Source: Leptogorgia sarmentosa
Lineage: Eukaryota
Direction: 5' to 3'
Assembly (NCBI GenBank): GCA_964658305.1
Contig: OZ210885.1
Span: 8,246,001 to 8,310,000, forward strand
DNA length: 64,000 nucleotides
Below, piece after piece: positions 9,770 to 64,000 of the stretch; the first letter of the stretch is position 1, and each line of letters starts with the position of its first letter. A model generated the notes under the pieces. That model worked only from the letters and a program-made list of their open reading frames with translations. It made no database searches and was not told where the DNA came from. A program made the position numbers and the translations under genes.

Positions 9770-12700
9770 ATGGTAGTGAAAAGGTCAACTTAATTTCGCA
9801 ACATATGCGGGATCTGGCACGACTGCAATGCAGCTGAGGCAGTTGTGCCATGTGCCTGCATTGCAGTTGAAGCAGGCAGTTAAACCAGAGTTTTTTGATA
9901 AATTCGTGGAAGCGACCCGAACAGTCAGCGGCTTTGACAAAAAAGAGCGTAATTTAAATCAATACAAAGCCCCATCGAGTGCCAAAAAATCGGGTATGCA
10001 ACAAAAAAAAGCAGCACTCATAGGGAAAGGGCAGGCCATTCGCTGTCGTGATTCCAACATCAAGAAAGACGTTGATGATTTCCTCAGTCTCTACGACGGC
10101 GAATGGTCGGAGAAGGTATCCAGTAATGCCCTGAATGCTCTGGCTTATAGGAAACATAACAAGCCAGAGACACTGCCCCTTACTGAGTACTTGGTCAAAC
10201 TCCGACAATAACAGATGGATAAGGTTAGCTACTTAACATTAATTGATAGCGAAATCGTTTAATACTCGTCAGGGAAGCAATATGCTTAGAGAATTAGCCC
10301 TTAAGTCAGTCAGTCAGCTGGGGCTTGTCTCGACATTCGACAATGAGAAACATCGATAAAACGTTGTTTAAATTATTTCCTCAATAATAATTAAGAATTA
10401 TTAATAATAATAATTTAATAATTATTTATTAAATCATTGTGGTATTTTCGTCACAAACTATGCAAATACCCATATTTTCGTGAGTATCGAGCGATGGTGT
10501 GAAAATGAACTCTTCAGGAGTGCGTGCGTCCTCGGACTGAAAATGAAGAAATACTAACATTTCCTCATTGCGATGCAAGGAGTCAAAACTGTATGGGTGG
10601 GTACAGGAGAGTCTTTGATCAAAATTTGGACCTCTTGAAATTTGGGCCTTTTTTTAAACTGAAACCAACGACTTTAATTAACAACTTCACTGAAGACACA
10701 TGCTTATCAGCTTTCCAGCGTTTTTTCAGATTTTTTTGCTTTACAACTACCAAGTGTTGATTATTATTTAAACATCATTAATAATTCATAAACCATTTGT
10801 CATTTCAATAATTGGCTAGCATGTTAATACGGCTACATAAAAGAGCTAAAATTCATTAAATTTTGTGAATTTCATATTTTTGAACATCATTTCGGGTTGT
10901 ATCAAAAGGCCTAAATTAAATTTTGAAATATGACGTGAGAATATTTGAGCGAAAAATACCTAAAATTTGTTAATGTGGAATCGTTCTATGAAATTAGCAT
11001 TAATTTTGATAAATTGCAAACGTACAAAGACCTTTTCATTTTGGTTTTGCAAATATTACGTTTGAGAAGGACTAATATTGATATTTACAGTTAACATAAC
11101 CAATTTACATTGCTTTCTGTCAAGGTTTGATCTCGTTGAAATCGTGGGGAAGCGTAACCGAAAGGTTCCCATTATCATTACCCCAGAGGTACAAAGAGCA
11201 ATTGAAATATTAATTAATACTCGTGATGAAGTTGGCGTTCATCCGGATAACCCATATGTCTTCGCCGTCAATAATGACAATTCTAAGAATAACATCAGAG
11301 GATGCCAAGCCATTGCAAATGTTGTTCGCCATGTCGAACTCAAGAATCCGGAGCAGCTTACCTCGACAAAGCTGAGGAAATACGTGGCCACCGTCTCGCA
11401 GATTGTGGAAATGAACGAAGCAGAAATTGGATGGCTGGCCAGGCATCTTGGCCATGACATCCAAATTCATAAAGATTTTTACCGGCTACAAGAGAGCACT
11501 ATCGAAATGGCAATCGTTGGGAATCTTCTTGTAGCTGTGGATGAAGGGAAGGCTAGCCAGTTCAAGGGGCGGAATTTTAGAGACATAAAGTTGCAAGGTA
11601 TGAATAAATTCCTATCTAATATTATTGCAGGACCATATAAATCCATGACATCAATGTAGCAACATGGCATTGGTTATATGTTCTAAAACGTTCTTTTAAT
11701 TAGCTATTCTAGTACAACGTCTATTTAACAATTAGACAATGAAGCCGAGTTGTCTAATTGTTTTAGTATACACTCTATGCGCAGAATGATTTATATAAAG
11801 AAAATTTTTCAGAAACCTTAGCAAAACGCGAGTTTTCTGCAGTAGCCATATTGTTTTCCTTTACTTTTTCGCGAACCGTGGTCTATCACAGAATAGCTAG
11901 CCGAGTAGCCAATCAGAATGTAGCATTTGTAATAGACGATGGTTGGGTGTATACTAAAATTTATTAGTATACACCCAACCATCGTCTATTACAAATGCTA
12001 CATTCTAATTGGCTACCAGTCGTTGTCTTTTGCGTGATACACCACGGTTCGCGAAAAAGCAATGGAAAACAATATGGCTACTGCAGAAAACTCGCGTTTT
12101 GCTGAGGTTTTTGAAAAATTTTCTTTATATAAATCATTCTGGGCTTAGAGTGTATACGAAAACAATTAGAAAACTCGGTCTCGTTGTATAATTGTTAATT
12201 AGTAGCTACTGTGAAATAAAGGAAATGCTTGAGTTTTTACAGTATTCATGAACTAAATTATTTGTATTGAAAATAGATGCCGTATATAAACAAACAACAA
12301 ACTGGACGGTATTTTCAAAGTCCTTGTGCATATGAAAGGATAGGGATATAGCATGGAAATTACTCCAAAGTGACTGAGCAAACAATTGAAACCCCCTTAC
12401 CCAGAACTAAGTTTTGCTAATGAATAAAACTTTTTCTCTAAAACGTTTTTTTGTTTCGAGATAAGACGACGTAAAAATTATTATTTTTGCAGAACAATTT
12501 TTATTCTTTTTTAGAATTCGATGGTACCAATAAGGAAGAATCCTTTAGTAAGTACAACTAAACATTGTTCTTTTAGTCTATTTGTTATATAGACAATAAG
12601 ATACAACAGAATTCCTGGTTTTGGTAATCCAGGAAATCGGATTATCGTTTTGGCGACAGTTGAAAGAATTTTAAGTTTTCCTTGTGTGCAAACTTGTTTC

Positions 12701-17354: not shown

Positions 17355-17817
17355 TTTGAAACACATGTCACAGCAAACAATACAATTTAAAAAATGGTGA
17401 TTATAGTTAATTTACATAATTATAGTTTCTGATAGATAGCGCGAATGTGGGCTTCCGGTCCGGCTCAGGAGATGATAAGTCGCTCATTCAATCCCATTTT
17501 ATCTTGTATATACTTTAGTAAGCTCAGTTACCTCACAAATTGTGTTTATTAACCTTCGATGTTTATTATAGACCTTCGAAGTGCTCAAGTCACGCCAGTG
17601 TCAAAACAATGAATCGCTGCAATGCATTGTGAGAAAGATGTGAGAATAAATTTTATTGTATTTACATGCATTGAAAGACCGTGTGATGTAAGCACTTCAA
17701 AAGTCTGTAGGAGAGGAATGAGGAAATGTCAGTAAGTTAGATTGTTAAATGCATGCAAAATTAAAACACGTTCCTAAATGATATTTGTTAATCAAAATAC
17801 TTTTCCATTTTCTATAG

Positions 17818-20800
17818 CCCCCACGTGCGATCCCTCTTCACAATTCACTTGTGGTGACGGTGAATGTTTCCCTATTTCTTTTCATTGCGACGGCGATAAT
17901 GACTGCCCTGACTCCTCGGACGAACAGGGTTGCCCCCCACCACCCACTTTCGCTCCTTGTCCAGCTCACAAATTCGGATGCGGTGACGGAGAATGTATAC
18001 CGCTGGACCGGAAGTGCGATGGTGCATCAGACTGCAACGATGGAACAGACGAATTGAGCTGTCCTGCAACGTGCATGAGCATGCAGTTTACATGCGCGCA
18101 ATCGGGAAAGTGCATTTCCCAGCATTCAAGGTGCGACGGTATTGAATATTGTGGAGACGGTTCGGATGAAGCGAAATGTGGTGAGTGGCAGTTGAATTAA
18201 ATCAAGTATCGTCGATTGCAATTAAGAATGAACAGTTGCATATAAAAAGATTGATAAAGCTGTTAATTTATTGGTATAGCACAGATTAATATTCACTGCA
18301 TGTTTTCGAGTTAAAGTTTCGTTTTACTAATCATGATTCTGGGGAGTTGGTTGTATCAAGGGTGAATAGGGAGACTGTGGTACACTGAATTTAGGACATG
18401 CAATTGGGCGAAAATTAATGAAGCTAATTTTTTTCCGTTTAACTTTCTTTAGAACACCCCATGTCATGTAGTGATGCTAGTTCGTTTCGTTGTGGAAGTT
18501 CGCCATATTGTATCAACGCGACCAAAGTGTGCAATGGTTTGAGAGATTGTCCCCGTGGGGAAGATGAAGCACCTAACTGTGGTATGTATTATGCTTCTCT
18601 TACCGGAAGAGAATCACATACAGGCCCAAAAAGGCAAAAACTATGTGCGTACTATGTATTATGTACTATGTACTATGTAGTTAACAGATCTACCGATTTT
18701 CTTTGCCGCTTTTCTGTTGAAACTAACATTCATTTGATGCATTTTTTTATAATGCGGATGTAAATTTTCTCATATATAACTGTGTATCTACATTGCATTT
18801 TAATAGGCATCGACGAGTGTTCTGATCATAATGGTCACTGTATTCACAAATGTAAAGATCTTCCTATTGGTTACGAATGCCATTGTAATAAAGGCTACAA
18901 ACTGGCCAACGACAGCAGATCTTGTGAAGGTACGAACGTTGAGGCATGGCTCTGCATTGTCACTATAATATGTTGTGCGCTACTTTTACGATGATTTATA
19001 TTGCAGACCTAAGCGAATGCGAAGAGGTGTATGGCTCCTGCAGTCAGAAGTGTGTTAACTTCAAAGGACACTTCAAATGTGGTTGTGTCCAGGGTTATCG
19101 TAAGGAAGAGGATGTCACGTGTCGAGCGACAGGTGAGAGATCACTGGGTATGCCTTTTCCTGGCGTAACATGTTTGCAATGAAACTGATAAAGGTTGACG
19201 GGGGAAGATATGTTGCTAATGATTGTATATTATTTGCGAAATTTTCTAGGCCCACAAGCGTATCTTGTCTTTGGTGGCGAACATGCCATTCACAATCTCA
19301 CAATATCTGGGATTCACTACGATGATGTTGTTTTAAATCGCAACGCACCAATTGCCATAGGCCATGATGTCAATAATGGATACGTTTACTGGAGTGATAT
19401 TCTTGATGGGACGATTGAACGTGCACGATTATTGGGTGATGGAACTGCGGAGACAGTTGTTAAGAAAGTAGTACACTCAAATGGTACGTTTAACCGATCT
19501 AAGTCAATGTTGTTGGCTACCTGCATGTTTCTATATTATAAATTTGTACGCCTTCTTTCAATCTAGATCTAATGTTGGTTAATATAAATTAAAAAATCTA
19601 GGTGTGGCCATTGATTGGATTGGAAAGAAAATATATTGGACCGATGAAACATTGAAATCCATTGAAGTTTCTGAATTCGATGGCAAGAATCGTTTAAAAC
19701 TATTCAGTGTCAGCTTAGACGCGCCGCGCGGTATAGCTTTGGATCCATTTGAAAGGTAGGATTACTACTTATCTGTATATTTTGAGCTGGGATGGTGCGC
19801 AAGCCATAGCTTCTTGTGAAATGTAGGCTATGTAGCTTTCAATTAACCAATCTTCCGAACTTTCAGCCAATGTTCTTGAGTTAAAAATAATAAACCAGCG
19901 AAACTAAATGAATACTTTAGACAAGCCTAGATAGAAACCAATGAGGATTTCTTTACTTCTAGGTATATATTCTGGACAGATTGGGGTGGACTACATCCTA
20001 AAATTGAGCGAGCAAGTATGGATGGCAATTTCACTTCTCGCAAAGTTATCCTTGACACTGACCTCGTCTGGCCAACTGCCTTGACAATAGATACCATCAC
20101 TCAGAGGTTGTTCTTCGCGGACACAAAATCGCAGCGAATAGCGACGATCAAATACGACGGTTCGGCGAGAAAGACTTTGATCTTCAAAGGACTTGTTCAC
20201 CCGCTAGGTTTGGCAGTGTTTGAGGATCGTCTGTACTATACTGATTATTCGCTTAACACCATATTCACCGTCAACAAAAGAACTGGCCAACAATTACGTG
20301 AACTGAAAAACAATTTGAGAAGTCCTACGGGTGTGAATGTTGTTCACCCATTGCATCAGAAACAAGGTAAGGCAGTGAATGATTTAATTTCTTTCTCCGC
20401 TTCACTGTGTAGTACGTGAAACTGAACAGAAAACGCAACCGAAAAATTATATACACAAAATTTATTTCTTTAGTCCCCACACAGTGCGCCAGAAATAACG
20501 GTGGGTGCTCTCATCTCTGCCTGCTTTCAAGCGTTTCCGCAAAAAATCACACCTGCTGCTGTCCAAACGGAATAATGTTGAGAGAAGATGGCAAATGCTG
20601 CGTTCATAGCGACGAATCAAATTCAACGACACCTCGCAAAACCAGCCCCTCTCCAACGATCAGGATTGTATCTACTGGCAAACCTAGCCAGACCAGTCCA
20701 TCCGGGACGACCGGAAAGAGTACAACAAGTAACAAAGGTAAAGAATGTCTTTGTGATGGCAACAAAAAGTCTTATTTAAAAGAACGTATAAAATAATACT

Positions 20801-21381
20801 GTCCTGTATTAAAGTGACAATCTGCATGTATTGTCACAGCTCACAAGTGGGCTCACGCAAGATTTTTAGCTTTTGATTGTTACTCAGTGACTCACAAGTG
20901 ATTTTATTAGGCTAATCCCGCATGTGACGTCGTTAAAAACATCGTTATTGAGATTAAGAATGGATCCAATTAAGAAAACGGACAGTTTGTTTCAAGAATT
21001 AAGCAAGATATGAAAAATCTGTGAAATAGCTATGCCTTTATAAATAATTTAGAAACGTTCTTTAAGACTTCAAGACTGGTTCTGAAAAGAATTTTGATCT
21101 TTGAACGTTTGTATAATCTAGATGGTACGCTGGGCAAGAAACAGGGTGAATCATCTTCAAACAGCGGACCAATGATAGCTGGAGTTACTGTGGCTGTTGT
21201 GGTACTCATCTTCCTGCTCATTGTCGCTTTCTTGTATTGGCGAAGACAAAGCAAGATGGCGGATAGAAGAATTCTGTTTTACAAAGTTAACTCGACAACG
21301 CCGCAGCAAAACGACTTCTATGAAGAGCTTATCAAAAGCCACGAAAACATTGGCGGAATGTCACGCGTGCAATTTACATAA
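17818..21381 (+). CDS. LDL-receptor family protein (LDLR/VLDLR-like): 4 visible LDLa, 2 EGF, YWTD propeller, EGF, Ser/Thr-rich stalk, TM, short tail; 5' exon(s) not identified
   Basis: GT-AG exons approx 17818-18180, 18453-18581, 18807-18929, 19007-19132, 19250-19483, 19602-19755, 19963-20366, 20474-20737, 21122-21381; motifs [71 protein letters not shown]. Confidence 0.93.
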
Positions 21382-45743: not shown

Positions 45744-48700
45744 ATTCTCACGTGCATGTCTACCAAACTCTTTCCCTCTGTAACACATGACTTATGGTTG
45801 AAAATCACGGTAACATTTACTTCACTGTGATGGGTATTTAACTGCCAAATTCTTTGCGAAATTTCATATGCGAACTTTCTTTAATTTTACATTTATATGA
45901 TAATTATATTTCCCAAGAAGAGGGACAATGCCACCCGATGATTTTAAATTCATGACGGATTAAAAACAATTCCACTTACTGACAACACAAGTTGTGTCGT
46001 ATTGTGCGGTTCTGTACAGCTACGAACTCATAACAAACGAACCATATTTTTGTATTTTATTTCATACGGCAACTTTCTATTGGTCGTTCAGACATCGCTT
46101 TTAAATAATAGTTAAATATTAAATCCAGCGAATGTACAATTGAATAATCTCTTAATCTAATTCTGTTCAACCTGAACTAATCATTCTTGCTCTTCGCTCC
46201 CACGCAACTTGTGACATGAGTGTCTTCCTGTTATATTGTTCTTCGACCCAGCATTATTCAAGTGAAACCCGCAAACACAATTGCTGGAACGTTCTCGATA
46301 TGTGACGACATGTATTTACGTCGTTGAGGTTGAATACAGAAGCGTTTGTCCTTTTAACATCATTGCAAATTCAACATTCGGTGAGTACCAATAAATGTTT
46401 TTGAAACTATTTCCAGTTTGCACAATAACGTTATAAAATCCCATATAACAGATTCCCTTTCAAAGCACAATATCCATCTGATGACGTTGCAACACAATGA
46501 CAAACAAACATGCCTTTACGCTTCTACCATTCGTGTAAAATCGTTTCAGGTTATGTGACGGTGTTCTATGTCGCTCTTACTTTTAATTATCTGTGATCTC
46601 GTGAGCCTTGTATTGCACATAAACTCCTCATATCACCACTTAGTTTATCTAAGATATTCGTCATGCAAGAGCGTTTGTTTGTAAATTAAACTTAATTTAT
46701 TCAGACAAGATACTGATAAAACTAGGCAAGATTTGGATCTTTTAATAAAAGCTGAGGTCATGAATCATTATTTATTAAATGCTTTAAAGCTTTTCGTTAC
46801 TATCTGTACTGATTCTTGGGTGGTTATATCATCGTGAACATACATATGACTGGTGCGTGTTCAATCGCTGACATGTCATGCATACAGCGCTACTTGGCAC
46901 GATTTGTTGAAAATCCTAAATTGAATTGAGCATTGCCAAACAAAGCAGCCTCCATCCTCTCTTCGGGTTTATTCAATACAGACTTGAGCATGCAATAACC
47001 AGGGACCAAACAACAGGTGGACCTTTATTGCTTTCAGGTTTTCAGCGATATAACTGCAACTTAGCAACGCTCAGTCTGTGGCGCTGTTAGCAAATTTGCT
47101 GTTCTTGACTAATTAGGTTGCGACGAAGTCTTCAAATTCATACGAAAGCAAACTTCAATACTAGCAGTGTATACCTCACGCAAGTTTGTTTACAAGTTTC
47201 ATTAAAAACTATAGTATATGATTGCCAACATTTCAGTCCGTAAAAGTTGATACATTCTTTCTAGCATAAAACATTCACTGTTAATTAATCAATACAAGAC
47301 TGAGATTAAATCGACTGATAGCATGCATGTAAATTGTATTATAGCGGACGTTTTTGCGATTGTTTATTATGCCCTCGGCCCTCAAGTGTACTACATGCAT
47401 ATTTTTTGTCTATTATAGTGCAATATGGACCGAATGTCCCAAGACAGATAACACATGCAATCTCAATATCATGCTATAAAAATAGTACACTGAAATAAAC
47501 CTATAAAGGCCTATCCACACGATGTGAATATCTTATACGATTCGTGTTCTGACTTATGGAAATGAGTAGTGATCTCTCATTCCCTGTTGATTACGTTACG
47601 TCGGCATTTCATTGTATTCACGCATGTTTACTGCATGCATTCCATACGCTAGAATACAAATTTTATCGTGTAAATGGCCTTGGAAGAATCTCAATACCAC
47701 GGGATGACAAAATTCAATACATTGAAATGAACCCAAAGCAACTTGTCGTGCAGTGGAGATATTAAAAATATTTCAAAAAACAAACTGTGGGGTTCTTCAA
47801 AGGAATGTAGGATATGTGCTTTCGTTTTAATATTCTCACGTGTATATCTGTAAAACTCTTTCCCTCTGTAACACACGACTTATGCTTGAAAATCACGGTA
47901 ACATCTACTTCACTGTGATCCATGGTATTGAACTGTCAAAATCTTTGCGAAATTTCATATGCGAACTGGCTTTAATTTTACATTCATATGATAATTATAT
48001 TTCCCAAGAAGAGGGACAATGCCACCCGATGATTTTAAATTCATGACGGATTAAAAGCAATTTCATTTACTGACGACACAAGTTGTGTCGTATTGTGCGC
48101 TTCTGTACAGCTACGAACTCATCAAAAACGAACCATATTTTGGTATTTTACTTCATACGGCAAGTTTCTATTGGTCGTTCAGACATCGCTTTTGAATAAT
48201 AGCTAAAGATTAAATCCAGCGAATATACAATTGAATAATCTCTAAATCTAATCCCGTTCAACCTGAACTAATCATTGCTGCTCTTTGCTCCCACGCAACT
48301 TGTGACATGAGTGTCTTCCTGTTATATTGTTCTTCGACCCAGTTTCAAGTGAAACCCGCAAACATAATTGCTGGAACGTTCTCGATATGTGACGATCGAC
48401 ATTTATTATGTCGTATAGAAGTTGAATACAGAAGCGTTTGCCCTTTTAATATCATTGCGAATTCAACATTCGGTGAGTACTAATTTAAGGTTTTGAAACT
48501 ATTTCCAGTTTGCACAATAACGTTAGGAAATGCAATATTACAAATTTCCATTCAAAGCACAGCGTCCATTTGATGACGTTGCAAGTTGCAACACAATGAC
48601 AAACAAACATGCCTTTACGCTTCTACCATTCATGAAATATCGTTTCAGGTTATGTGAGGGTGTTCTATGTCGCTCTTACTTTTAATTATCTGTGATCTCG

Positions 48701-51250
48701 TGAGCCTTGTATTGCACATAAACTCCTCATATCACCACTTAGTTTATCTAAGATATTTGTCATGCAAGAGCGCTTGTTTGTAAATTGAACTTAATTTATT
48801 CAGACAAGATACTGATAAAACTAGACAAGATTTGGATCTTTTAATAAAAGCTGAGGTCATGAATCATTACTTATTAAATGCTTTAAAGCTTTTCCTTACT
48901 ATCTGTACTGATTCCTGGGTGGTTATATCATCGCGAACATACATATGACTGGTGCGTGTTCAATCGCTGACATGTCATGCATACAGCGCTACTTGGCATG
49001 ATTTGTTGAAAATCCTAAATTGAATTGAGCATTGCCAAACAAAGCAGCCTCCATCCTCACTTCGGGCTTTTTCAATACAGACTTGAGCATGCAATAACCA
49101 GGGACCAAACAACAGGTGGACCTTTATTGCTTTCACGTTTTCAGCGATAAAACTGCAACTTAGGAACGCTCAGTCTGTAGTGCTGTTAGCAAAATTGCTG
49201 TTCTTAACTAATTAGGTTGTGACGAAGTCTTCAAATTCATAGGAAAGCAAACTTCAATACTAGCAGTGTTACCTCACGCAAGTTTGTTTACAAGTTTCAT
49301 TAAAAACTATAGTATATGATTGGCAACATTTCAGTCTGTAACAGTTGATAGATTGCGTCTGCCATAAAACATTCATTGTTAATTAAGACTGAGATTAAAT
49401 TGACTAACAACATGCAAGTAAACGAACTATGGGGTTGTTTAAAGGAATGTAAGTTACGTGCTTTAGTTTTAAAATTGCCACGCGTATGACATCTACTTCA
49501 CAGTGATGGGTATTTAACTGCCAAAATCTTTGCGAAATTTAATATACGAACTGTCTTTAATTTTTCATTCATATAATAATTATAGCTATTTCCTAAGAAG
49601 AGGGAAAATACCACCGGATGATTAAAAACAATTTCGTTTACTTACAACACAAGTTGAGTTGTATCGTGCGCTTGTTAAAGCTACGAACTCATATCAGGCG
49701 AAAAACATTTTTCTATTTTCCTTCATAGGGTAAGCTTGTATTGGTCGTTCAGACGTCTTATTATTATTGTGACAGAAATCATTTCAATGTACAGCTGTTT
49801 TGTTGCATGAAACCCAACATGTATTACTTTGCACTTTGCAACAATATTCCCGAAGCTTAAACAGCAACTTGCTTCAGCTTCATGTAGTTTATACACCGAA
49901 TGTCTTGTGGTGAGTAGAATTCATCAAATTTATTATTGTCACTGAATTATTTTTACCGAGTAGAGTGTAAGGAAATATTCAATATGCGGCGCGTCAGTGC
50001 AGGTAGCGGATCACATCAGCAAACACCAGAAAGGGTTTTGCTCACTACCTAAACGATGCAATTAATAAGTTTCAATATTTGGAGCGAACGCCTTTTGTCG
50101 GAGTTCATCGTTTAATTTAGCTTTAGTCTAACGAATAATAGCATCAAGAGCACCGGAAAACACATGTAAATAAATTGTGCTATCAGTTATATTTATAACC
50201 TTTATTGCAGACAGTAATCTAATCATTGCGGCTTTCTGTTCCCACGTAAATGTCACATATGAGTATCTTGCTGAGTTATGTCAGTTATATTGTTCTTCGA
50301 CCCAGCACCATTCAAGTGAAACCCGCAAACAGAGTTGCTCGAACGTTCGCGAGATATGACGGCGTTGAGTTATGTGACACAAAATGAATACAGAATCGCT
50401 TTTTCTTTCAAAAGTCATTTTAACACTCGGTGACTCTACGAAAATGTTTCGAAATTGTTTCCAGTTTGCAGAGTAACGTTATAAAATGTCACATTGCAAA
50501 TTCCTTTCAAAACACGATATCATGCGTCTGCAACAAAATGCCAAATAAACGTGCACTTGGAGTATGTTTCTCTTACTTTATCTGTGATTTCGTGAGCACA
50601 TAATAAACTCCTCACACACCACTTAGTTTATCAATTCGTCATGCAAAAGCGTTTGTTTGTATGTTGTAGTGTTGTAGACTTCAATTTTCAGTTCAGACAA
50701 GATACTCCTAAAACTAGATATCATTTCAAACGCTTAATTTGATCTGAAAAGGTCGGGATCATGAATCATTAATTATATTTATTGAATGCTATAAAAAGCT
50801 TTTCATTACTATCTCCATGGCCAGTGTATTCTTGGGGTTATTATATCATGGAGACGTATGACTCCGGCGAATGTTCAGTCATTGGCATGTCATGCATTAG
50901 ACATACAGCGCTACGTGGCACGATTTACTGAAAATCCTAAATTGAACTGAGCTTATTCAGACTTGAACATGCAATGACCAGAGAGTCAAACAACACGCAG
51001 ACGGACCTTAATTGCATTGTAATTTGACAACTTGCAGTCTGTATCGCAAATTTCCTGTTCTTAATTATGATTAGATTACGATGAGGCCTTTAAATTCACA
51101 GGAAAGCAAACTTCAATACTGGTAGTGTGTACCCTCGCGCAATTTTGTTTACAAATTTCATTAAAAACTATATTATATCTTCAGCAACATTTCTATCATT
51201 AAAAGGTCATGGATACATCTCATAACATAAAACTTTCATTTTTAATTATT
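45744..51250. repeat. Tandem triplication of a ~1.6-2.1 kb non-coding unit
   Basis: Unit 1 ~45744-47340 and unit 2 ~47783-49420 are highly similar (offset ~2088); unit 3 ~49424-51250 is more diverged and interrupted at ~49760-50200. Confidence 0.9.
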
Positions 51251-51954: not shown

Positions 51955-54900
51955 AACGATAATGATGTCAAAGGAAGAACAACATTGGGTTTTAGTTGGC
52001 ATTGCCTTTACCAAAGTTCTTGCACCTGCATTGAGGAAAGTTGTCGCCACTGAACTTGGGATATGGTATCATTCTTTATGCCAACCACCTGATGAAATTC
52101 ACAAGCAAGATTTCGCAGCATACAGAAGGAAGAAATTACCCCCTTCCACCGATAATCTACAATATCACAACATTAACAACAACATTATCCACAAGCCTAC
52201 TAAATCAGCTTATGATTATGCTGTTAAAGATCCTGTCTCGTTGGCGAGACTACTCGTCACCGATTTTATTGCAGATATCACTGGATTTGATGAAACCATG
52301 GATATGTCAGCACTTTTAACTATTATCGGCAAGGCAGCTCCTTTCGTATCTTCGGGTGCTGCAGCTGAAGCAAAGAAAGTTAGGTCGGACATCAGAAACC
52401 CATGGGCTCATTGTAACATCTCTGAATGGACACTACATATGTTCAATGACTCGTTTCAAGGAATGAAATCTTTAGTCAATTTGTTAAATTTACCAGAAGC
52501 TGACAAAAAAATAATTTGTGATGAACTAGATTTCTGGAATAAAACAGGTACTGTATTATTAGCATTATTGCCGGAATTTCATCATGCCTTTAAATATGTT
52601 TTGCGCAGATCATTTCAAATCAAAACTTCAATCATTCAAAAGTCGAATAAACTAGGGAATGTTTAACGCAATTTTGCCAATTTTTTTTCATTTTAGTGTA
52701 GTTAATTGTAGACTTTTCTCGATACGGATATAAATTTTGCATGGGTATTATACTAAAATATACAAAATTACAACAAATTCTACTAAAATATACATATTTT
52801 ACAACATTTCTCAACCAAACTTTACAATTTTACTAACTTTGTATTGCTCTTTAACTCTGTTGCTCTGAATTGTACTATTTCGAAATTTCTAAAAATTGTC
52901 TATTGTGCAATTGGTCCATTCCCGACGGAAAAATCAACTTTACTCAAAACGTCCAACCTGTTTGCATTGTTTAAGTAGTGGGTATATGACATGTGCTGCT
53001 TGCTGAGGTTGTATATCCCCTTCCTACTACACTGGCCGCCTATTGAAGTTTGCTAATAGCCACAGCAGACCATGTTTATCAAATATATGGACAGCAAGGC
53101 ATGCTTTTTCATGTACCCTTCGTGCTACGCGCATTAGCAGCGATGTATTTATAGTGTTTGTGATACTCAAGATAAGTTTTCTTCATTATTTCCAGACATT
53201 CTTGTTGATAGTCGTCACGCAAAACTAATTGCAGAAAGTGTAGCTGAACTTTGCCGTTGTATCAAAAACTGCGATTTGGACGCCACAAAGGTTTGACGAA
53301 CTTTTGTTGTTTCATTTAACAGTCGTTGAAGAAGTAGGAAGACGCTGTTCAAATTAATATAAGACATCTTTCAAATGCGAGCGAGTACACGAAGCGTGTA
53401 CCGATGAATAAAACACACTACATATCAATTACTGTTAAATACTGTAATATAAATACCCCATTAAGCAAAACAATTGAGCCATTCTTATAGACAAGAGATA
53501 AACATAAATTTTGATAGATAACAATTATTTTTCCTTGCAAAATTGCTATTTAAACGTTGAACTACAAATTTCTGAAAAGTTTAAACTAGGAAACTTGCAT
53601 ATCAGATTTCAATAGACCTTATGTATAATGTCGTCACAAAAATTTTAGCTCGTATTCGACTTTACATCTGTGTCGACCAAGCATTGAAATATTTCGTCCT
53701 CACAGTGACGTAAAAATTATTCGATGGCAATTTGAAAATTTTGAGAAAAAAGGGCCAATTTATAAGAGAGGAAAAAATAGGTACGCATGTGGGTAGCCCG
53801 TAAAAGATCGGCGAAGCAATTTTCCCTTTCCCTAAAATCCCAACCATTAAAGTCAGGAAAATATTGATAAAGCTCAGACGGTTAAGAACACCGGCGTGCG
53901 TCGCTGTTCAAACAAAACAAGTCCACAGAGTTTCCGTCTTCTCTCTTTAGCTAGCCACAATGCGTAGTTTCTGTCCCTAGGATTCTTGACTTGCTCGGTA
54001 ATTGCCTTGAAGTTCTTCAGTAATTCTATTTAATTTGGGAATTAACTGTATAAGCGACTGTCTTCGGTTTCTCGGCGTTGCTGGGCGAGAGGTGGATATA
54101 ACTCTATCGTTTATCGACTGAGAGTTTTATTTTCAGTTTGCCAAAGCACTCCAAGTATAGAACGACTGTCTTTAAACTTCAGGATATCAGACCGTAGTTG
54201 ATTCTTTTCAGTGTTGGAACTTAGTTCACCCCACGCTAGTTACGCTTTGTCACCTTTTTTTTCATTCAAGAACTAACAATTTTACTTTACTCATCTCGCC
54301 TAAGATTGTTTTCAGTCACCTCGATACACGCTTTCAATTCCAACTAAATCTTCTCGAATCCTTGTGACCCTGCCCTCTTTACTTGTCTTGTCGTCCACAC
54401 AACCACGAACTCTGTCCTTGCCTCATATATATTGTCTCATTAATTTACATACTCATCTTAATCTCTAATCTGATAATATACATGAAAAAATTTCACGATT
54501 CTGAATTGCTAAGAGCAGTGCAATATTAAGGAAATACAGTGGCAAAAAGGAAATTCAGTGCAAAAAAAAAGAAATTCAGTGCAAATTTCTTCAGATGTTT
54601 ATGCCTTCTGATTGGCTGAGATTACAAAGCTAGCCAATCAGATTAAGCCATTTCTGGCGAACAATAACAAAATATGAAATTATTCGAGAATGAAAAAATG
54701 GCTGCCTCTTTGGGTAGATTCTTTTAGGAACAGACAAATGATAGAGGGGCTTAAAAATAGTTCGAAAAATGAAAATACCACCAAAGATATCTAGTCTTTT
54801 GGTTGATTGTGCGGAGACAATGGTGCATTGAAAAGGAAATACAGCGCGAGATACAAAATATTCCGCAAGAGGTGTTAGATTAGATATTTTGCTCGATTGT

Positions 54901-57900
54901 TTTTATGCTGAACGAAAACTGCGAATTAAAAAAAGAAACGGCGATGAATATGAAGCTGACAGCTTAAAAGTGATATTAACAGCAGTCGATGATGACAACC
55001 TTTTTATAATACGAGACAGAGATTTCTCTTCGTTCAAGCAAGTGCTCGGTGGACAAGCGAAACAACTTCGTATATTAGCGGCCGAACAAAACGAGAAAAA
55101 CTCGCTCGTGAATGTTTTTTCCAAATTGCACTCGAAACCATACAATTACCTATACTAATAACGTCAGATTATAACTATTATTACATCACACACCTTAACC
55201 CGCTTTGTGAAGTTGAGAGTGATTTCAAATTTGTTTCAGCCCGTAAATTGAATTTACTAAATCAATTTTATCTATTCAGATAAATCCAGTGATGGAGAAA
55301 CTCGATAACATACAATCCACACTGCTTCGCAAAATTAAAGAGGTTGAAAGGTCTGCAGCTGAGAAATTTGAACATCATTCAATGGAGCTTAAACGTCTGG
55401 CGGAGAAAACAGATGAAATCGAATGTCGTCAGAAAAAGCCGAGGACGGAGCATTCAGATTTTGCAGAGAAAAAAGGTAGTGTTTCAATTAACTAGGAAAG
55501 ATGGAAACTATTTATGCAAAATATATTATGCAGAAAAATTTACAGACTGTCAGCCAGCCATTCAATTTTCAAAATTTGTCCCCCACGAACCTTCCCGGTC
55601 TTCAACGTTCTTTTTCTAAGAATTTCTTGTAGGAAAATATCTCGTTAGAGTAAACGGCAACAGGAATGCAATATGTCTTCTAACACTTCCCAGATTTAGT
55701 GGGAATCCGAAAGCATTGGCAGTGCAGTACGCGCTGTCGCACTCATCATCACTAAAAATGAATTTTAATGTTGGGCGGGTTAACTGCGTAGGGCACAACC
55801 AAATAAAAAACGCTCGTGAAAAGTTGACGCCGCTCAATTGCTACAAGAATGCTTAAATGTTGCTGATAGTAGTTAAATGCTTCTTCTTTTGATTTATGTC
55901 CTAAAATGCTTCATTAATAGGAGATTCAGCAGTCAATGTTGAAAGCCAAGTTGTCAAGTTGCGAACTGTGGTAGAAAAATCTTCTGAAAAATTAACTAAA
56001 TTTGTATTTAATGGAAAGATTGACTAGCTTATTCGAAAATTTCAAGAAGGGACCAGACAATGGTTCTTTGACGACTTTGAAAAATGGCTTCGCGATACGA
56101 AATCGAGAGTTATGATCCTAAATGGAGGTCCCGGCGTTAGGAAAAGTGTTCTGTCGGCAAAATTATGTGACTTGTATGAAGAGACTGGCCAGCTTGCTGG
56201 TTGCCACTTCTGTTACTTTAGAGGCTCTGATTGCCGAGATGTCACTGTTCGTTTGTACTACTTTCTAAAAATCCATGCTGTAAATGATGTTTATAGCTTT
56301 ATTCTATAGCATGATTTGAAAGCTTCAACTGAAATAGACGCTGCGCGATATATACAATGAAACGTCGGCTGTCCAGAAGCCGAATCATACCCTAGAATGT
56401 CTAATTCTTATTTGTATAGGTACATATTGGCATGGTTTCGAATGCAATTTCGATAAAGTATGCACGAGTGACCTCGATGACTAGGAATGGTAGTTTGATA
56501 TTACATATCTTTATATCACCACTGCACTCAGTGGACAGCACTTCAAAATCATACCGTACTCCAAGTTCTCTCACGCTGCAGTACAGGTGGTGAGGAAAGA
56601 CTGTACCAATTAGCACCTTCTGCGCGCGCACGCATAAACGACCAAACAGGAACAGCCACAACGTAGAAACTTCTCATCAATAATCGTAAAGCACACTACA
56701 AATTGCTTTTCTTGGTAAAGTTTAAATAAAGTTTAGACTCACTTCAGTAACAATACACTGCAAACTGTAGCAAGAGATTTTCATGCCAGGGCGACGTAAA
56801 ATATTGAACGAAATTAATGTTCAAAGTTGAAATTATACAAATATGCATTCTGGTATGCACAATTATTTGAAGCGTGCAGCAGAGTGATTTCAAAATTATC
56901 ATCTATATTTTTTAATCGATATTCTAGTTCCGTATGGATTACGCAATCTACCTGCTCACATGGTGGAAAGGCCATCAGAAGTAACCGAGATATTGGAGTT
57001 ACTCAAGCAGGGAAATAAAGTGGGTGTTGTTGGACGTCATGGTGGCGACGTTGGTATCCGTGGAATGGGAGGCCTCGGTAAGACGGTGTTAGCACAAGCT
57101 GTTGCCTGGGAAGTCTCAAAATCTCGTCAAGTTGTCTGGCTTGACATTGGTCAAACACCTGATCGCTTGAAACTGATTAACACCCTCGTCAGAGTCCTTG
57201 GTGGAGATGTGTCGTTCAGTGATATTGTTGCAGCGCAATCTTGGTTAAGAAAATACACGGTATGTATGCTGTGCTATATTTGATGTTTGTGAGAAAATGT
57301 GATAGGGCTATTTTCAAGATAGGGACGATTTTTAATGGGATGTAGCTCGAATAGCCAAGTTGCACGAATACAGAAAAATATATCCGGTACAGCGTTGGTA
57401 AACGTAAATTAAAGCGACGTTAAATGTAGAAGTCTGATGTTAGATGGACGTTAAAGATAGAATAGTGGCAATTCTTCCAAGTCTTTTCTTTCGCACGACC
57501 ACTTACCCAGGGCGGTAAGCTTTATTACTTGTCTTTAATTTTTAAAATAAATTTAGCATTTTAACCCGGCTTCGCCTTGTTCAGTATTGAAAATTTCTCG
57601 TGCGTTGTACAGCCAGTTCGTGTAAGTATTTGTAAATAAAGCACAATTCTTAACTCGTGCATTCTTGTTAAACGAAAACAATATATATTTGCATACGACT
57701 GATGTGTCGAAATATTTCCTTCATGCAGTGATGATATTTCCCTTGGGCTAAAGCCATCAGGTCTTCATGAAATATTTCGACGATTATATGTAGCCCCCGG
57801 GTCTATAAATGATAATTAAAATAGTACCTCTACTTTCTCAGTTCGTTAAAAAACCTCATTCATCTCATGCATTGGTGGTGAGATGATGGCAGCTGGGACT

Positions 57901-59689
57901 CTTTTACACTTGCAATTTTTGCAGCGATTTCTAGTGCGAGTTTTATTATTGAGGTGAAAGACTAAACCAGTTGCGGAATTCAGAAATAATAAAATCAGAA
58001 CATTCGTCATAAATCCACCTATGCATGAACATGTGCCTCGTATATCAGAAAGGCCAGAAAATGCCACTAAAAAATTGCAAGCGAGCCTTTGAAGGCCTTG
58101 GCTAGTAAGAGTGGTAAATTTTACCAACCTTTGAATGCAGTTAACAGATACGGTTTCTGAGCTAGTTTTCAACTCATTTTTAGATGGATAAAGATTGTTT
58201 GGTTGTTGTTGATGATGTTTGGAAGGTGGACGACGCTGCTGTATTCAATTGCTTATCTGGCAAATGCCAATTACTAATAACAACTAGAGATGCTACTGTT
58301 CTCTGCGTTTCGGGAATTACCAAGTACGAACTTGTTATTATGCCACAAGATAAATCCCGAGGGCTCTTGTATCAGAGCGCTGGGATAAGTCCAGAAGAAC
58401 AGTTAACGCCAAACTTACGGCGAATTATTGCAGACCTGTTAGAGCAGTGTCGAGGTTTACCCCTGGCTCTGTCACTGGTGGGTTCAAATTTAACGGACAC
58501 TCGTGCGGAACAAGACTGGGAGGATGTTTTAGATGATCTTAAAAATGCTGACCTGGAGAGAATTCGTTCATTATTTCCCAAAGTCGATTATCCTTATGAT
58601 AACCTCTTAGCAGTCATTGATGTGAGCTATCAACGCCTAGACGAAAGTGTACGCGAGATGTTCCTTTATTTGGCTATATTTCCAGAGGATACAGATATAC
58701 CGTCAGATGTACTCGAGCTGCTGTGGTGTTCGATACAGAACCAGAATGGAAAAACTTCGCGCAAATCTCAGAAACACAAAGATATACTTGCTGTGCTCGA
58801 GAGAAAGTCGCTGATCTTAAAAGGTACAGTTTTATCTTTTAACGGTTTTGATCTGCACATCCTCCTAAAAATTTTTATCTTCAGTGCCAAGTTCACTTTG
58901 CAGTATTGTCATTAGTAACGAAAATTTACAACAGTCAGTGAACCAGTAATACAGGTTGCAAAGTGGATCAAGTGGATTTTTCGATGTTTTGTATTAATAA
59001 GGAGAATCATGTAAATTAAAAAATATTGTTTGCTTTTTAGGAATTAGGAGTTTTACCAAGACTACCTTAAGTCTATGTGTCTTTTTACAGATATTGCATT
59101 ATTCTTGGCTCGCTATAGCCAATAATTATTCTTATTGTGACTAAGCCATTTCGTATTTACGAAAACCTGATAGCACAACTCCTTCTATACTACTCAACGG
59201 CGATTTTGAGATTTCAAAAATTGTCCGCCTCTAGTACAGATTTCCTAACACTTCGATCAATTTCAGGGCCTGAACTCCACGGAAAGAAAAGCTATCGTGT
59301 CCATGACTTGCTTTTGGATTTTGCCCAGAAAAAACTTCAAGACATGGGTACACTAAATGATGTTCAGGATAAGTTCGTAAAGACACTTTGTGGCCTGTGC
59401 GTGGATGGTGACTGGAATGATAATTCAACTACTTGCCAAAAAGACTATTATTTCAAGTACCTACCCTATCACATTTATTCTTCGGGACGACATGGTGAAA
59501 TACTCCAGTTGCTGTTTGATCTACACTGGCTCAAACAGAAAGCGAAACACGTCAGCGTATTCTCTGTAATATCAGATTTTCGTTTTGTGGACACAGAATC
59601 GGAGGAAATCCAACTTCTCAAATCCTCGTTAATGTTCTCTGCCGATGTCATCAACGAAAACCCAGATTCAATCTGTCCTCAACTCCTAG
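51955..59689 (+). CDS. APAF-1-like NB-ARC protein with apparent N-terminal HEPN (DZIP3/hRUL138-like) domain and coiled coil; 3' exons (WD40 expected) not seen in the window
   Basis: Exons ~51955-52547 (VRSDIRNPWAH, RxxxxH), 55280-55475 (coiled coil), 56928-57259 (GMGGLGKT), 58184-58823 (LVVVDDVW, LLITTRD, CRGLPLAL, FPEDTDIP), 59267-59689 (VHDL, YYFKYLPYH..LLFDLHWL). The phase between the first two exons does not match, so a small exon may be unidentified. Confidence 0.8.
54470..55160 (+). mobile_element. CryptonA/DUF3504-type (KIAA1958/ZMYM-like) relic in an intron
   Basis: Broken frame ...FYAE..KKRNGDEYEADSLKVILTAVD..IIRDRDFSSFKQVLGGQAKQLR, with stops upstream. Confidence 0.65.
55921..56240 (+). 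pseudogene. Inactivated NACHT-type (NPHP3-N-like) NTPase exon
   Basis: FQEGTRQWFFDDFEKW..SRVMILNGGPGVRKSVLSAKLC..LAGCHFC; in-frame TAG 56025-56027; Walker A GKS changed to RKS; truncated. Confidence 0.75.
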
Positions 59690-61054: not shown

Positions 61055-64000
61055 GTGGCAATTTCTGAAGCCTACACAAAGTTTCATACAAAGAATGATT
61101 GTCTCAAAAGGAGTTTGACAATTACTAACACGCATACTATCAGAACAAGAAAACACAAATGTTTTCAATTAAACAATGCTAAAATTGTTCGTGCAAATAA
61201 ATGTAATGTACAAAGAATTTTTACATGTGATAATTTGTTTCTTATTTGTGTGCGTGGTGATATTGAGTTAAATCCGGGTCCCGTGAATGTTATTCGTATG
61301 TCAGTGTTGACGACAAGATGAGCTCGCAAAGGGCGTAAGCAAGTAAATATTGTCGGTGATGCTAACTACTTCTTTCGTAGTGTTAGCCAGCAACTTTACG
61401 GAACTGAAGATCGTCATCTCCAAATAAGAGCTCTCGCAATGCAAAATTTAATAAACTGTCCAGAACATTTCATTGAACATAACACTGAGCCGTCATGGTT
61501 CCATTGTTTACGAGGTATGTCGACACTTGGTATATGGGCAGACAATATTATTATACAGGCAGTTGCTAATACAAATAAGTTACGAATAATTCATCACGGA
61601 AAGTGGACTGAATTTTTCCGAGTCAACAATTGTGAACTATTTATACTGAGTTTGAAGGAGGAAATGCGAGAGATATTTATATAGGCCATCTTGATGAGCT
61701 GCATTACGTGTCAACCACGTCTACCACACAATCTTTTTCTGTACAAACAAATCAAATGACAGATTCTGAAAGCGAATCAAACTCGCGAGATTCTCAAACT
61801 AAATCCGAAAATTTATCAAAATAAAACGAATTTGCCTTATTAAAAATATTAGACGAGAGGAAAAAATATATAAAAGAGCGAAGAAAAGATGATAAATTTA
61901 AAAACAAAGAACTTGAAAGAAAAAGTCTTATAATAAAAACTATAAAAATTTGAACACTTAAAAAATTAAGGAATCTTGGCAAAAAGCTTCTGCAACATAC
62001 AAAGAATGAAATCCCGAGAAGGTTAAACGGTCCTCCAAGAAAGCCACTGCAAAGTATATTCATAATAATCCTGAAAAACCTGAAGAATGTAGAAACCGAG
62101 CTACTGCATTTTACAGAAATTTAAATCCTGAGAAGGTTTTGGAATCATCTAAAAACTAAAATAGAAATTATAATAAAAACTGTCCGGTATAAAGAGTTCA
62201 AAATATTCTAAAAAGGGGGTTATATTGAAAGGAAACGGTCTTGTACGGAAACAAACGAAATTAAAATGTAACTTCCAAGACAATTCATTTGAAACTTTAA
62301 AATTAATGTAACTCCTTCTGATACGAGGTTGTCAACAAACATATCAACAGCCATTGAATTATTTCATTAGAACGTTAGTGTTGGACCAGAATACATTTGT
62401 ACATGTTGTGACCAGTATATAATACCAGTATCAGACAAATATAATGTTTCTTTGTATAAGTCGTGTTCAAAAGAATTTCTCAATTTATGTATTACTTTTC
62501 TCAAAAGCATTGACAATACTGAAGTGATATGTAATACCTCCCGAACCTAAAAGCTGTCAAACGTCCTTCTTGTGATAAGGCGAATAAAATAAGTTACCAA
62601 GAAAACCTGATGTCTTAAAGGATTTGACACCTCTCGAAGAAAGACTAATCTCGCCAAGAATACCTTTTATGCAAGTACCGCGAACTTCCCAATTAAGTTC
62701 GAGGAGGCCAATTAAGTATTCATGGGAATGTAGGTAATGCACCTGATGATGTTAATTCTACTATAAGCGTTTTACAAAGACCAATTGATGAATCGAAACC
62801 ATTTCAAATTTTCAATTAAATTAAAACGATCCCTTGGTACAAACACCATTATCAATTTCAGAATGCTATTAGTAAAGCTTCAGAAGCAGCTCAATACTTA
62901 GATCGTACCAGTGAAATATTTGAAAACGAAGGAATACAAATGGACAGTTATGTATTAAATCAAGTGGATAATAATGAAGAGAAGTGGTCAGAATTTATTT
63001 CCACGGATGGAATAGTGACTTGAGAAAATCTGAACGCTCACAGTCAAGAAGTAGTTGAGACAAATGCAAATAATGACTTCATTGACAATGATACATATGA
63101 TGAGTGGTGTGCAGTGACTGAACGGTCATCAGGTCTTATGGATACATTATTACAAGAAACCGACATTACCCAAGATGGTGACAGAATAATAAGTTTTGCA
63201 CCAGGAGAAGGAATTAGACCACGTGGTATATTTGCAGACAAAGATTCTGAATTTCTTTTTTTTCCACCATTAATTGTGGAAAACGTCAAGCTGAAAGCAT
63301 TATACCACAATGTGTAAATGGGAACTGCGAAGCAAAGATAGAAGAGTCGCGCAGTCTGTGCCGAACATTTTTTACAAACTAAAAAAAATACAGATCAGGC
63401 AAATTCAAGGAAGTGCAAGTTTATCATTGCGTAAATGTAAAATTAAAGTTAAAATTTAAAATCAGAGTTAATAATTTTGGATGAAGGATTACGAAATTTA
63501 CGCGGATCACCTGCATACTTTGAAAAGTGTAAAAAAGATCTATTTGCCATGATTCGTCAGCTTGGTAGTCCTATACGTGGTTGTGTTCATTGTTAGCAGT
63601 GGATTCATTTGACTAAAATTCTTGGTCGTCTTATAGACAATAAAGATTCTACTAACGACGAAATTAAACAAATGACATGGCTGAAGAAATCTGAACTGAT
63701 ACAGAAAGATCCAGTCATATATGCAATAAATTTTCGACATAGGTACAATTATTCATTCACAACTTTATTTAAAGCTCAAGTCATCCAGTTGGTGAAGTTG
63801 TTGACTTCTTCTATTCTATCGCGTTGAATTTCGGCAAAGAGGTTCTCCACATATCCACGGCTTATTCTGGATAAAAAATGTTCCTGAGTATGGTAAAGAT
63901 AGTGATGAAGATATTGCCGAGTTTGTCGATAGTTATGTTTCATGTAAAGCTGACTCAGATGATTTAACTGATCTCGTAAATTTACAAAGGCATAACAACT
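61055..64000 (+). mobile_element. Decayed Helitron/Helentron Rep-helicase ORF with N-terminal OTU domain, running off the window
   Basis: OTU boxes VGDANYFFRSVSQQLYG, WADNIIIQAVAN, IGHLDELHYVS; GPEYICTCCDQ; LTPLEERLISPRIPFMQV; FAPGEG; LRGSPAYFEKCKKDLFAMIRQLG; HUH motif FYRVEFRQRGSPHIHGLFW (~63815-63870); many stops and frameshifts. Confidence 0.88.

Follow-up and report, generated by a model that had tools for sequence, protein, structure and literature searches.

In STAND proteins, a repeat tail keeps the ADP-bound monomer closed, and a ligand leads to exchange for ATP, ring formation and the gathering of the N-terminal heads. We describe here a gene of Leptogorgia sarmentosa that appears to combine such a switch, of the Apaf-1 type, with a predicted ribonuclease (RNase) head of the HEPN class. 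It lies on the forward strand of contig OZ210885.1 (GenBank assembly GCA_964658305.1), between positions 8,246,001 and 8,310,000. This whole stretch of 64,000 nucleotides is called the window, and coordinates refer to it. The closest named relatives of the gene are from Dendronephthya and Xenia. Among the systems nearest to it are the anthozoan Apaf-1-like proteins of the architecture DEATH/DED-NB-ARC-WD40 (Dendronephthya/Xenia "APAF1-like", OG0002938 and the paralogs of Zmasek et al. 2007). Over the region from NB-ARC to helical domain, the window gene is 53-64% identical to the octocoral-type members of this group; a WD40 tail is found in its homologs, and the entry motif from linker to NB-ARC is the same. 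The anthozoan proteins, however, carry heads that are death effector domains (DED) or likely death domains (DD), whereas the window head is HEPN-like. The vertebrate APAF-1 apoptosome also shares the APAF1_C domain, but the window gene has no CARD. In the parts available of the papers cited here, Zmasek et al. 2007 (PMC2246300) report CARD, DD, DED and TIR heads on Apaf-1 relatives, all of them adaptors, and a HEPN head is described neither there nor in the account of CARD-less Apaf-1-like proteins by Krasovec et al. 2023 (PMC10959488).

N-terminal HEPN domains are known from another set of animal receptors, the DZIP3-like HEPN-NACHT-(LRR/WD40) and HEPN-NB-ARC-TPR proteins of corals and bivalves (PMC10236652, PMC8260672, PMC9646362). 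These share with the window family an Rx4H motif with N after R, a STAND ATPase, a repeat tail and a proposed immune RNase role. Unlike them, the window gene has a body made of an Apaf-1-type NB-ARC and APAF1_C, with WD40 in its homologs. Emery et al. (PMC8260672) counted 83 HEPN-NACHT proteins in D. gigantea, and more than 50 were found in the pearl oyster (PMC9646362). An earlier note on this DNA, made from the sequence alone, was right that HEPN-NACHT fusions are known in corals (PMC10236652, PMC8260672). It also called a fusion of HEPN with an APAF-1-type NB-ARC less familiar; this holds for the WD40 version, which we did not find, but HEPN-NB-ARC proteins with TPR tails are already catalogued in corals, and the novelty is therefore narrower than the note implied. 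In the catalogue of Noel et al. 2023 (PMC10236652), 5 of the 180 WD40 rows are NB-ARC proteins, all DEATH-headed, and none of the 180 is HEPN-NB-ARC-WD40; four rows of supplement 17 part 1 are DZIP3-like HEPN-NB-ARC-TPR proteins, and HEPN-NACHT-WD40 proteins are many. This catalogue covers five stony corals and no octocoral, and its InterPro-based approach would miss the window head, whose subfamily scores below PF18738 and would be listed as undetected in domain-based catalogues. The CXorf38/DUF4559 and Swt1-like HEPN domains (Anantharaman et al. 2013, PMC3710099) resemble the window head in giving weak profile matches around the motif, and CXorf38-type HEPN has been reported as a fusion partner of NACHT and DEATH in cnidarian proteins. 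Unlike these, the window domain falls under all cut-offs, and an NB-ARC-WD40 fusion is absent from the table rows available. Searches for Apaf-1-like proteins with HEPN, or for shuffling of NLR N-terminal exons involving HEPN, found nothing in a literature sample that covered few subscription papers or supplements. HEPN with an Apaf-1-type NB-ARC-WD40 body is plausibly a new combination of known parts, one not found in print.

The gene lies on the + strand and is of the spliced, animal type, with six GT-AG exons and 757 codons without a stop. Its exons and two other elements of the locus are as follows.

51955 to 52547, + strand: exon 1, coding from the ATG at 51962; HEPN-like domain of 195 aa; phase-1 donor.
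53196 to 53290, + strand: exon 2, 95 nt; the helical linker begins here.
55280 to 55475, + strand: exon 3, likely coiled-coil linker (judged from sequence); phase-1 donor; aligns with aa 234-345 of the homologous protein P0001.
55921 to about 56246, + strand: broken NACHT exon (NPHP3_N-type) inside intron 3; phase-1 acceptor.
56928 to 57259, + strand: exon 4, start of NB-ARC; Walker A GMGGLGKT at 57062-57085.
58184 to 58823, + strand: exon 5, Walker B, sensor-1 TTR and GLPLAL; the winged helix begins here.
59267 to 59689, + strand: exon 6, carrying the VHD motif and then the helical domain of APAF-1 type; GT donor, phase 1 at its end; the following exon lies outside the window.
61322 to 64000, + strand: degraded Helitron-like element with OTU-like, DUF6570 and Helitron_like_N fragments, at the site expected for intron 6.

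The exon chain proposed by the earlier note lacked the 95-nt exon 2; it is out of frame, with 33 stops. Exon 2 has a pyrimidine-rich acceptor and a GT donor and bridges phase 1 to phase 0, and the frame is restored because it is included. The phase mismatch between the first two exons of that chain, raised as a possible sign of a pseudogene, thereby disappears. At the nucleotide level exon 2 matches L001 (88%) and L002 (82%), both of which join it to exon 1; L001 and L002 come from relatives, in spliced or intronless form, and not from the window copy. The frame also stays open with an acceptor at 55290, but this alternative was dropped, since the exon at 53196 is present in L001, L002 and P0001. 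Reading through the exon 2 donor leads to a stop after one codon. As a separate observation, L002:979-1097 and window 53288-53296 both enter intron 2 and have a GTTTGA stop in common, a possible head-only short form; the 5' part of L002 carries a tandem repeat of about 114 nt. The NB-ARC/APAF-1 motifs and the RNPWAH named by the earlier note all fall in frame within this one model: RNPWAH at aa 145 (52394-52411), GMGGLGKT at 338, VVVDDVW at 410, LITTRD at 434, GLPLAL at 494, YRVHDLL at 626, YLPYH at 681 and LLFDLHWL at 698.

The same fusion is present in two other proteins. P0001 (1205 aa) is 59% identical over 813 columns and colinear over the whole model, with NB-ARC followed by WD40 repeats; P0199 (1709 aa) is 60% identical over 773 columns and has the same head (hidden Markov model E 7e-82) and a WD40 tail. 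L001 (4084 nt, intronless), which encodes P0001, has one uninterrupted frame and aligns by blastn in five pieces that follow the window exon order, exon 3 being alignable at the protein level only. The stop-free chain, the fusion in P0001 and P0199 and the colinear L001 bear out the claim that head and Apaf-1-type NB-ARC form one gene, and we regard the fusion gene as almost certainly real. Splice joints of this copy were not seen among the 15 of 64 joints listed from four sequencing runs, whose type is not recorded. In one of them, X4, depth rose in the bins that contain exons, with contigs summed at 88% likeness, and this is given no weight here. A search with exon 1 among longer proteins gave seven relatives, and among the 120 matches listed for the NB-ARC region of P0001, the head profile was found only in P0001 and P0199. 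Ratios of nonsynonymous to synonymous substitution (dN/dS) against L001, which average over both lineages, are 0.30 for the head (192 codons), 0.32 for the linker (91) and 0.26 for the region from NB-ARC to helical domain (463), indicating purifying selection on head, linker and NB-ARC.

The body is readily classified. Pfam NB-ARC matches exon 4 (E 2.5e-6) and exon 5 (E 2.6e-18), and APAF1_C matches exon 6 over 59267-59689 (E 1.6e-10). The STAND set of NB-ARC/AP-ATPases is present, with Walker A, Walker B, sensor-1, GxP, winged-helix domain and MHD-type motifs, and among solved structures exon 5 is most closely related to APAF-1 (E 7.8e-17), with plant NLRs behind. As the earlier note had stated for the upstream exon, no death-fold match, CARD included, was obtained for exon 1, exon 3 or the joined head. 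APAF1_C and the position in the tree described below fit the CARD-less Apaf-1-like class, with WD40 seen in P0001 and P0199 only and not in this copy.

The head requires more care. The RNPWAH motif alone is weak evidence: of 20,000 shuffles of exon 1, 48.7% contained Rx4-6H and 3.3% contained R[NDH]x3H. What carries weight is how far homologs conserve it. The head family is large (341 representatives at E<=0.001, of which 150 were listed), and conservation was scored on 203 domains from 196 sequences, 181 of them covering the motif. R and H are both intact in 169 of these 181 homolog domains, and N stands at +1 in 172. The homologs range down to about 30% identity, and among them R145, N146 and H150 are retained at 95-96%; N146, W148, D114 and S116 are conserved at 93-96% (D114 at 93%) and D110 at 90%, and no Ex3[KR] motif was identified. 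Rx4-6H with N after R matches the HEPN description of Anantharaman et al. (PMC3710099). An insert at about aa 40-113 is also conserved, with N72, N74 and L97 near-invariant.

Profile searches with exon 1 gave no Pfam family at E<=1, and exon 3 had no Pfam match either. Among 90 aligned members of the family, E<=0.1 matches were to HEPN_Swt1 (PF18731) in 45, DUF4559 (PF15112) in 24 and HEPN_DZIP3 (PF18738) in 4, the sole strong one among these 4 being to the second domain of P0048; this protein carries the head and then a separate DZIP3-type HEPN at 248-308, above the Pfam cut-off. In 14 members examined singly, the weak HEPN-model matches fall at the motif-bearing end, and one of the 14, P0180, exceeds the DUF4559 cut-off (29.4 vs 27 bits). 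PADLOC and NCBIfam matched only 1-2 of the 90 members per family, with CARF-HEPN and Csm6 among the families. In the ESM Atlas the head matches mostly mollusc clusters at 0.97, with HEPN_DZIP3 or DUF4559 in 11-38% of cluster members. The AlphaFold2 model is all-helical (predicted local distance difference test score 96.5), and a wide structural search aligned it with the C-terminal domain of yeast Swt1 (Z 7.4, root-mean-square deviation 3.4, 119 of 136 residues) near structures with HEPN in their titles: the HEPN toxin 7ae2 (Z 7.1), sacsin HEPN 3o10 (7.0) and 2hsb (6.6). The rows for 5yep, Roquin, Cas13 and Csm6 in the same search we take to be HEPN as well. Another fold comparison was led by MOB1 (Z 7.1), with Csm6 at 4.9 and AbiF at 3.9. 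Foldseek gave no match for the head model at E<=0.001, and the head alignment profile run against PDB sequences gave a single one, vimentin (E 0.77).

Because these individually weak lines agree, the head very probably has the HEPN fold, in a subfamily outside current Pfam cut-offs. The HEPN head proposed by the earlier note thus stands as the most probable assignment, with an intact and conserved motif, but the HEPN_DZIP3 model it pointed to is not passed, and the domain leans towards Swt1-like/DUF4559. That the head is some other helical bundle, its motif having arisen by chance, a reading to which the shuffles and the want of a significant profile or Foldseek match lend something, is highly improbable, given that in many members the weak Pfam matches hit HEPN models at the end that bears the motif, and that the Atlas and the fold search agree with HEPN.

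Among 47 longer head homologs scanned, 31 carry nSTAND3, NACHT, NPHP3_N-type NACHT, NB-ARC, ROC-COR or AIG1, and none carries NB-ARC and WD40 together; two Dendronephthya proteins, P0002 and P0003, have an NB-ARC-TPR body and a head that is 58% identical. Immune effectors are usually found beside NTPases such as these of the STAND, ROC and AIG1 kinds, and the head looks like a mobile effector. A further protein, P0171, combines the HEPN-like head with a kinase and Ribonuc_2-5A (IRE1/RNase L-type), possibly giving two RNase domains per protein.

It is likely that the head is a catalytically active RNase. The other possibility, that a HEPN-derived head serves as an RNA-binding, adaptor or decoy module and the receptor signals via partners, draws on the existence of non-catalytic HEPN families, eukaryotic Swt1 included (PMC3710099), on Swt1 being the best-covering structural match, and on the conserved insert, which could be a binding surface. 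It is unlikely, since loss of the motif is described for inactive families (PMC3710099), and here R145, N146 and H150 are retained.

By analogy with known families, from which autoinhibition, ligand sensing, nucleotide exchange, ring and composite site are all taken, the WD40 repeats (or the helical domain) would autoinhibit the receptor and sense a ligand. A trigger would cause ADP/ATP exchange and assembly of an oligomerised ring, above which the helical linker of about 100 aa would let heads pair. Two juxtaposed motifs make up a HEPN site (Las1 preprint, 10.1101/760058), and in paired heads two Rx4H motifs would form one predicted active RNase site. RNA cleavage would then lead to translation arrest, followed by death or viral restriction, without caspases. 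There is a good chance that NB-ARC oligomerisation is what would switch on the predicted RNase, and we put the whole reading, an Apaf-1-like receptor with an RNase head predicted to be active on oligomerisation, at a probability of roughly 55%.

Several observations weigh against this reading. The window's own head has no match in Pfam, PADLOC or NCBIfam; its Atlas recognition score is 2048, against 2300 typical for known families; and its fold scores tie with those of acyl-CoA dehydrogenase (7.3-8.0), MOB1 and bromodomain bundles, the HEPN matches all being below 8. Only three fusion sequences were found, and our literature searches gave no case in which a HEPN of the DZIP3, Swt1-like or CXorf38 type on an animal NLR had been assayed for activity. 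For Apaf-1-like proteins that lack a CARD, Krasovec et al. (PMC10959488) suggest that constraint is relaxed and that oligomers do not form. Finally, no WD40 exon is present in the 4.3 kb between exon 6 and the window end, and the degraded, frameshifted Helitron-like element lies there at 61322-64000, recognised by three Pfam matches that are all below cut-offs. WD40 exons, which the earlier note suggested seeking further downstream, are thus a feature of the homologs, but none is inside the window.

These last points bear on whether the window copy of a real family is a young pseudogene or truncated, with a rearrangement leaving the NACHT stub and the Helitron cutting off the WD40 exons. The stub, with its stop and broken Walker A, would agree with such a history, as would the absence of any tblastn match in the window to the tails of four of four homologs and the Helitron-like debris at 61.3-64 kb. 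Against it stand 757 codons without stop or frameshift, splice sites that are all canonical and the dN/dS of 0.26-0.32. The window stops 4.3 kb past exon 6, and other introns of the gene reach 2 kb. We consider decay or truncation rather unlikely, and this gene copy is on balance probably still complete. A reading in which the head works mainly as a short form, through retention of intron 2 to give a 228-aa HEPN-only protein, or through splicing that alternates NACHT and NB-ARC bodies, takes support from L002, where exon 1 joined to exon 2 is followed by intron-like sequence with the window's GTTTGA stop, and from the phase-compatible acceptor of the NACHT stub. It seems quite improbable: L002 may be unfinished pre-mRNA, the full fusion exists in P0001 and P0199, and the NACHT exon is broken here.

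To trace the origin of the fusion, 23 NB-ARC regions were placed in a tree (the window, the 12 top animal-type and the 10 bacterial-type matches); P0204 was left out because it has no Walker A and the remaining listed matches because of size, and vertebrate APAF-1 was not included. The three HEPN-headed proteins form one NB-ARC clade (0.998) inside the octocoral-type death-fold-headed proteins, with Nematostella and Actinostola outside. Forcing the six death-fold proteins into a separate clade was rejected by the approximately unbiased (AU) test (p 0.022), but not by the Shimodaira-Hasegawa (SH) test (0.13). The head is DED in P0196 by Pfam, in P0195, P0197 and P0198 by similarity to P0196, and weakly so in P0202; the heads of P0200 and P0201 have weak death-domain similarity and likely consist of a death-domain pair. 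Because the NB-ARC nests among DED/DD-headed anthozoan Apaf-1-like proteins, these sequences indicate that HEPN replaced a DED or DD head, and not a CARD as the earlier note had it. Bacterial NB-ARC-WD40 relatives are 31-39% identical and lie outside the anthozoan clade. Bacterial STAND defence proteins, such as bNACHT proteins with HEPN effectors or cyanobacterial Apaf-1 homologs with a protease in the CARD place (Kibby preprint; PMC13581612), likewise have an enzyme effector on a STAND switch, but the window holds an intron-containing animal gene, and the distance of the bacterial relatives speaks for parallel design.

Head and body appear to have different histories. In the NB-ARC tree the window pairs with P0199, and a grouping with P0001 was rejected (p-AU 0.0015); the window head, in contrast, is 67.5% identical to that of P0001 and 56% to that of P0199, and in the head tree (16 sequences) a group of window, P0008 and P0199 apart from P0001 was rejected with p-AU 0.005, in a test run with 5,000 replicates, under the advised number. 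Monophyly imposed on the three fusion heads gave p-AU 0.31, which neither establishes nor rejects it, and rate differences could contribute to the conflict. The NACHT stub in intron 3 adds to this picture. It has a TAG at 56025-56027 and a Walker A reading GPGVRKS, covers only profile positions 1-69 of 164 (E 4e-11) and is free of frameshifts for about 105 codons. Similar NACHT domains occur in P0176 (E 2e-14) and P0184 (3e-11), both of which carry the window's head family. With a dS of 0.6-1.0 between window and L001, a stub neutral since the L001 split would be expected to be far more decayed; we infer that the head exons were recaptured from a HEPN-NACHT gene after that split, or that alternative splicing persisted until recently. 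Contigs of runs X2 and X4 start at window 56026, beside the stub stop codon, and other alleles or paralogs may differ there. Since head and body trees conflict and the stub lies in intron 3, the head-plus-linker exons with their phase-1 end appear to be a cassette swapped between receptor genes.

In the rest of the window, 47 predicted tRNA genes of many isotypes lie densely clustered on both strands at 23555-45441; they end 6.5 kb upstream of the gene, with no link shown. Exons of an LDL-receptor-related gene (17778-21378, + strand) encode class A and class B repeats, EGF-like and transmembrane-like segments. Two open reading frame fragments at 9780-11656 (+ strand), without Pfam support, resemble a degraded element of the tyrosine-recombinase type. 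A repeat of about 200 nt occurs upstream of the gene in three copies 79% alike (47090-47287, 49189-49385 and 51046-51248).

Corals and bivalves have hundreds of HEPN-headed NLR-like genes whose products are taken to be immune RNases, and our literature searches found no test of one. No STAND scaffold is better understood than the Apaf-1-type body, for which autoactive mutations and the ring geometry are known. With the fusion one could therefore test directly if a nuclease is activated in cis by an animal NLR, in the way that STAND defence proteins of bacteria activate their enzymes. More tentatively, and at less than even odds, soft corals may have made an RNase machine that needs no caspases out of an apoptosome-type ring, and may build such receptors by swapping a phase-1 HEPN-linker cassette among NACHT, NB-ARC-TPR and NB-ARC-WD40 bodies; this locus would have been caught just after such a swap, and its head would represent a large cnidarian-mollusc HEPN subfamily missed by standard annotation. 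An Apaf-1-like family would here have traded its death-fold adaptor for an enzyme, with the tree conflict and the intronic relic recording the exchange of heads.

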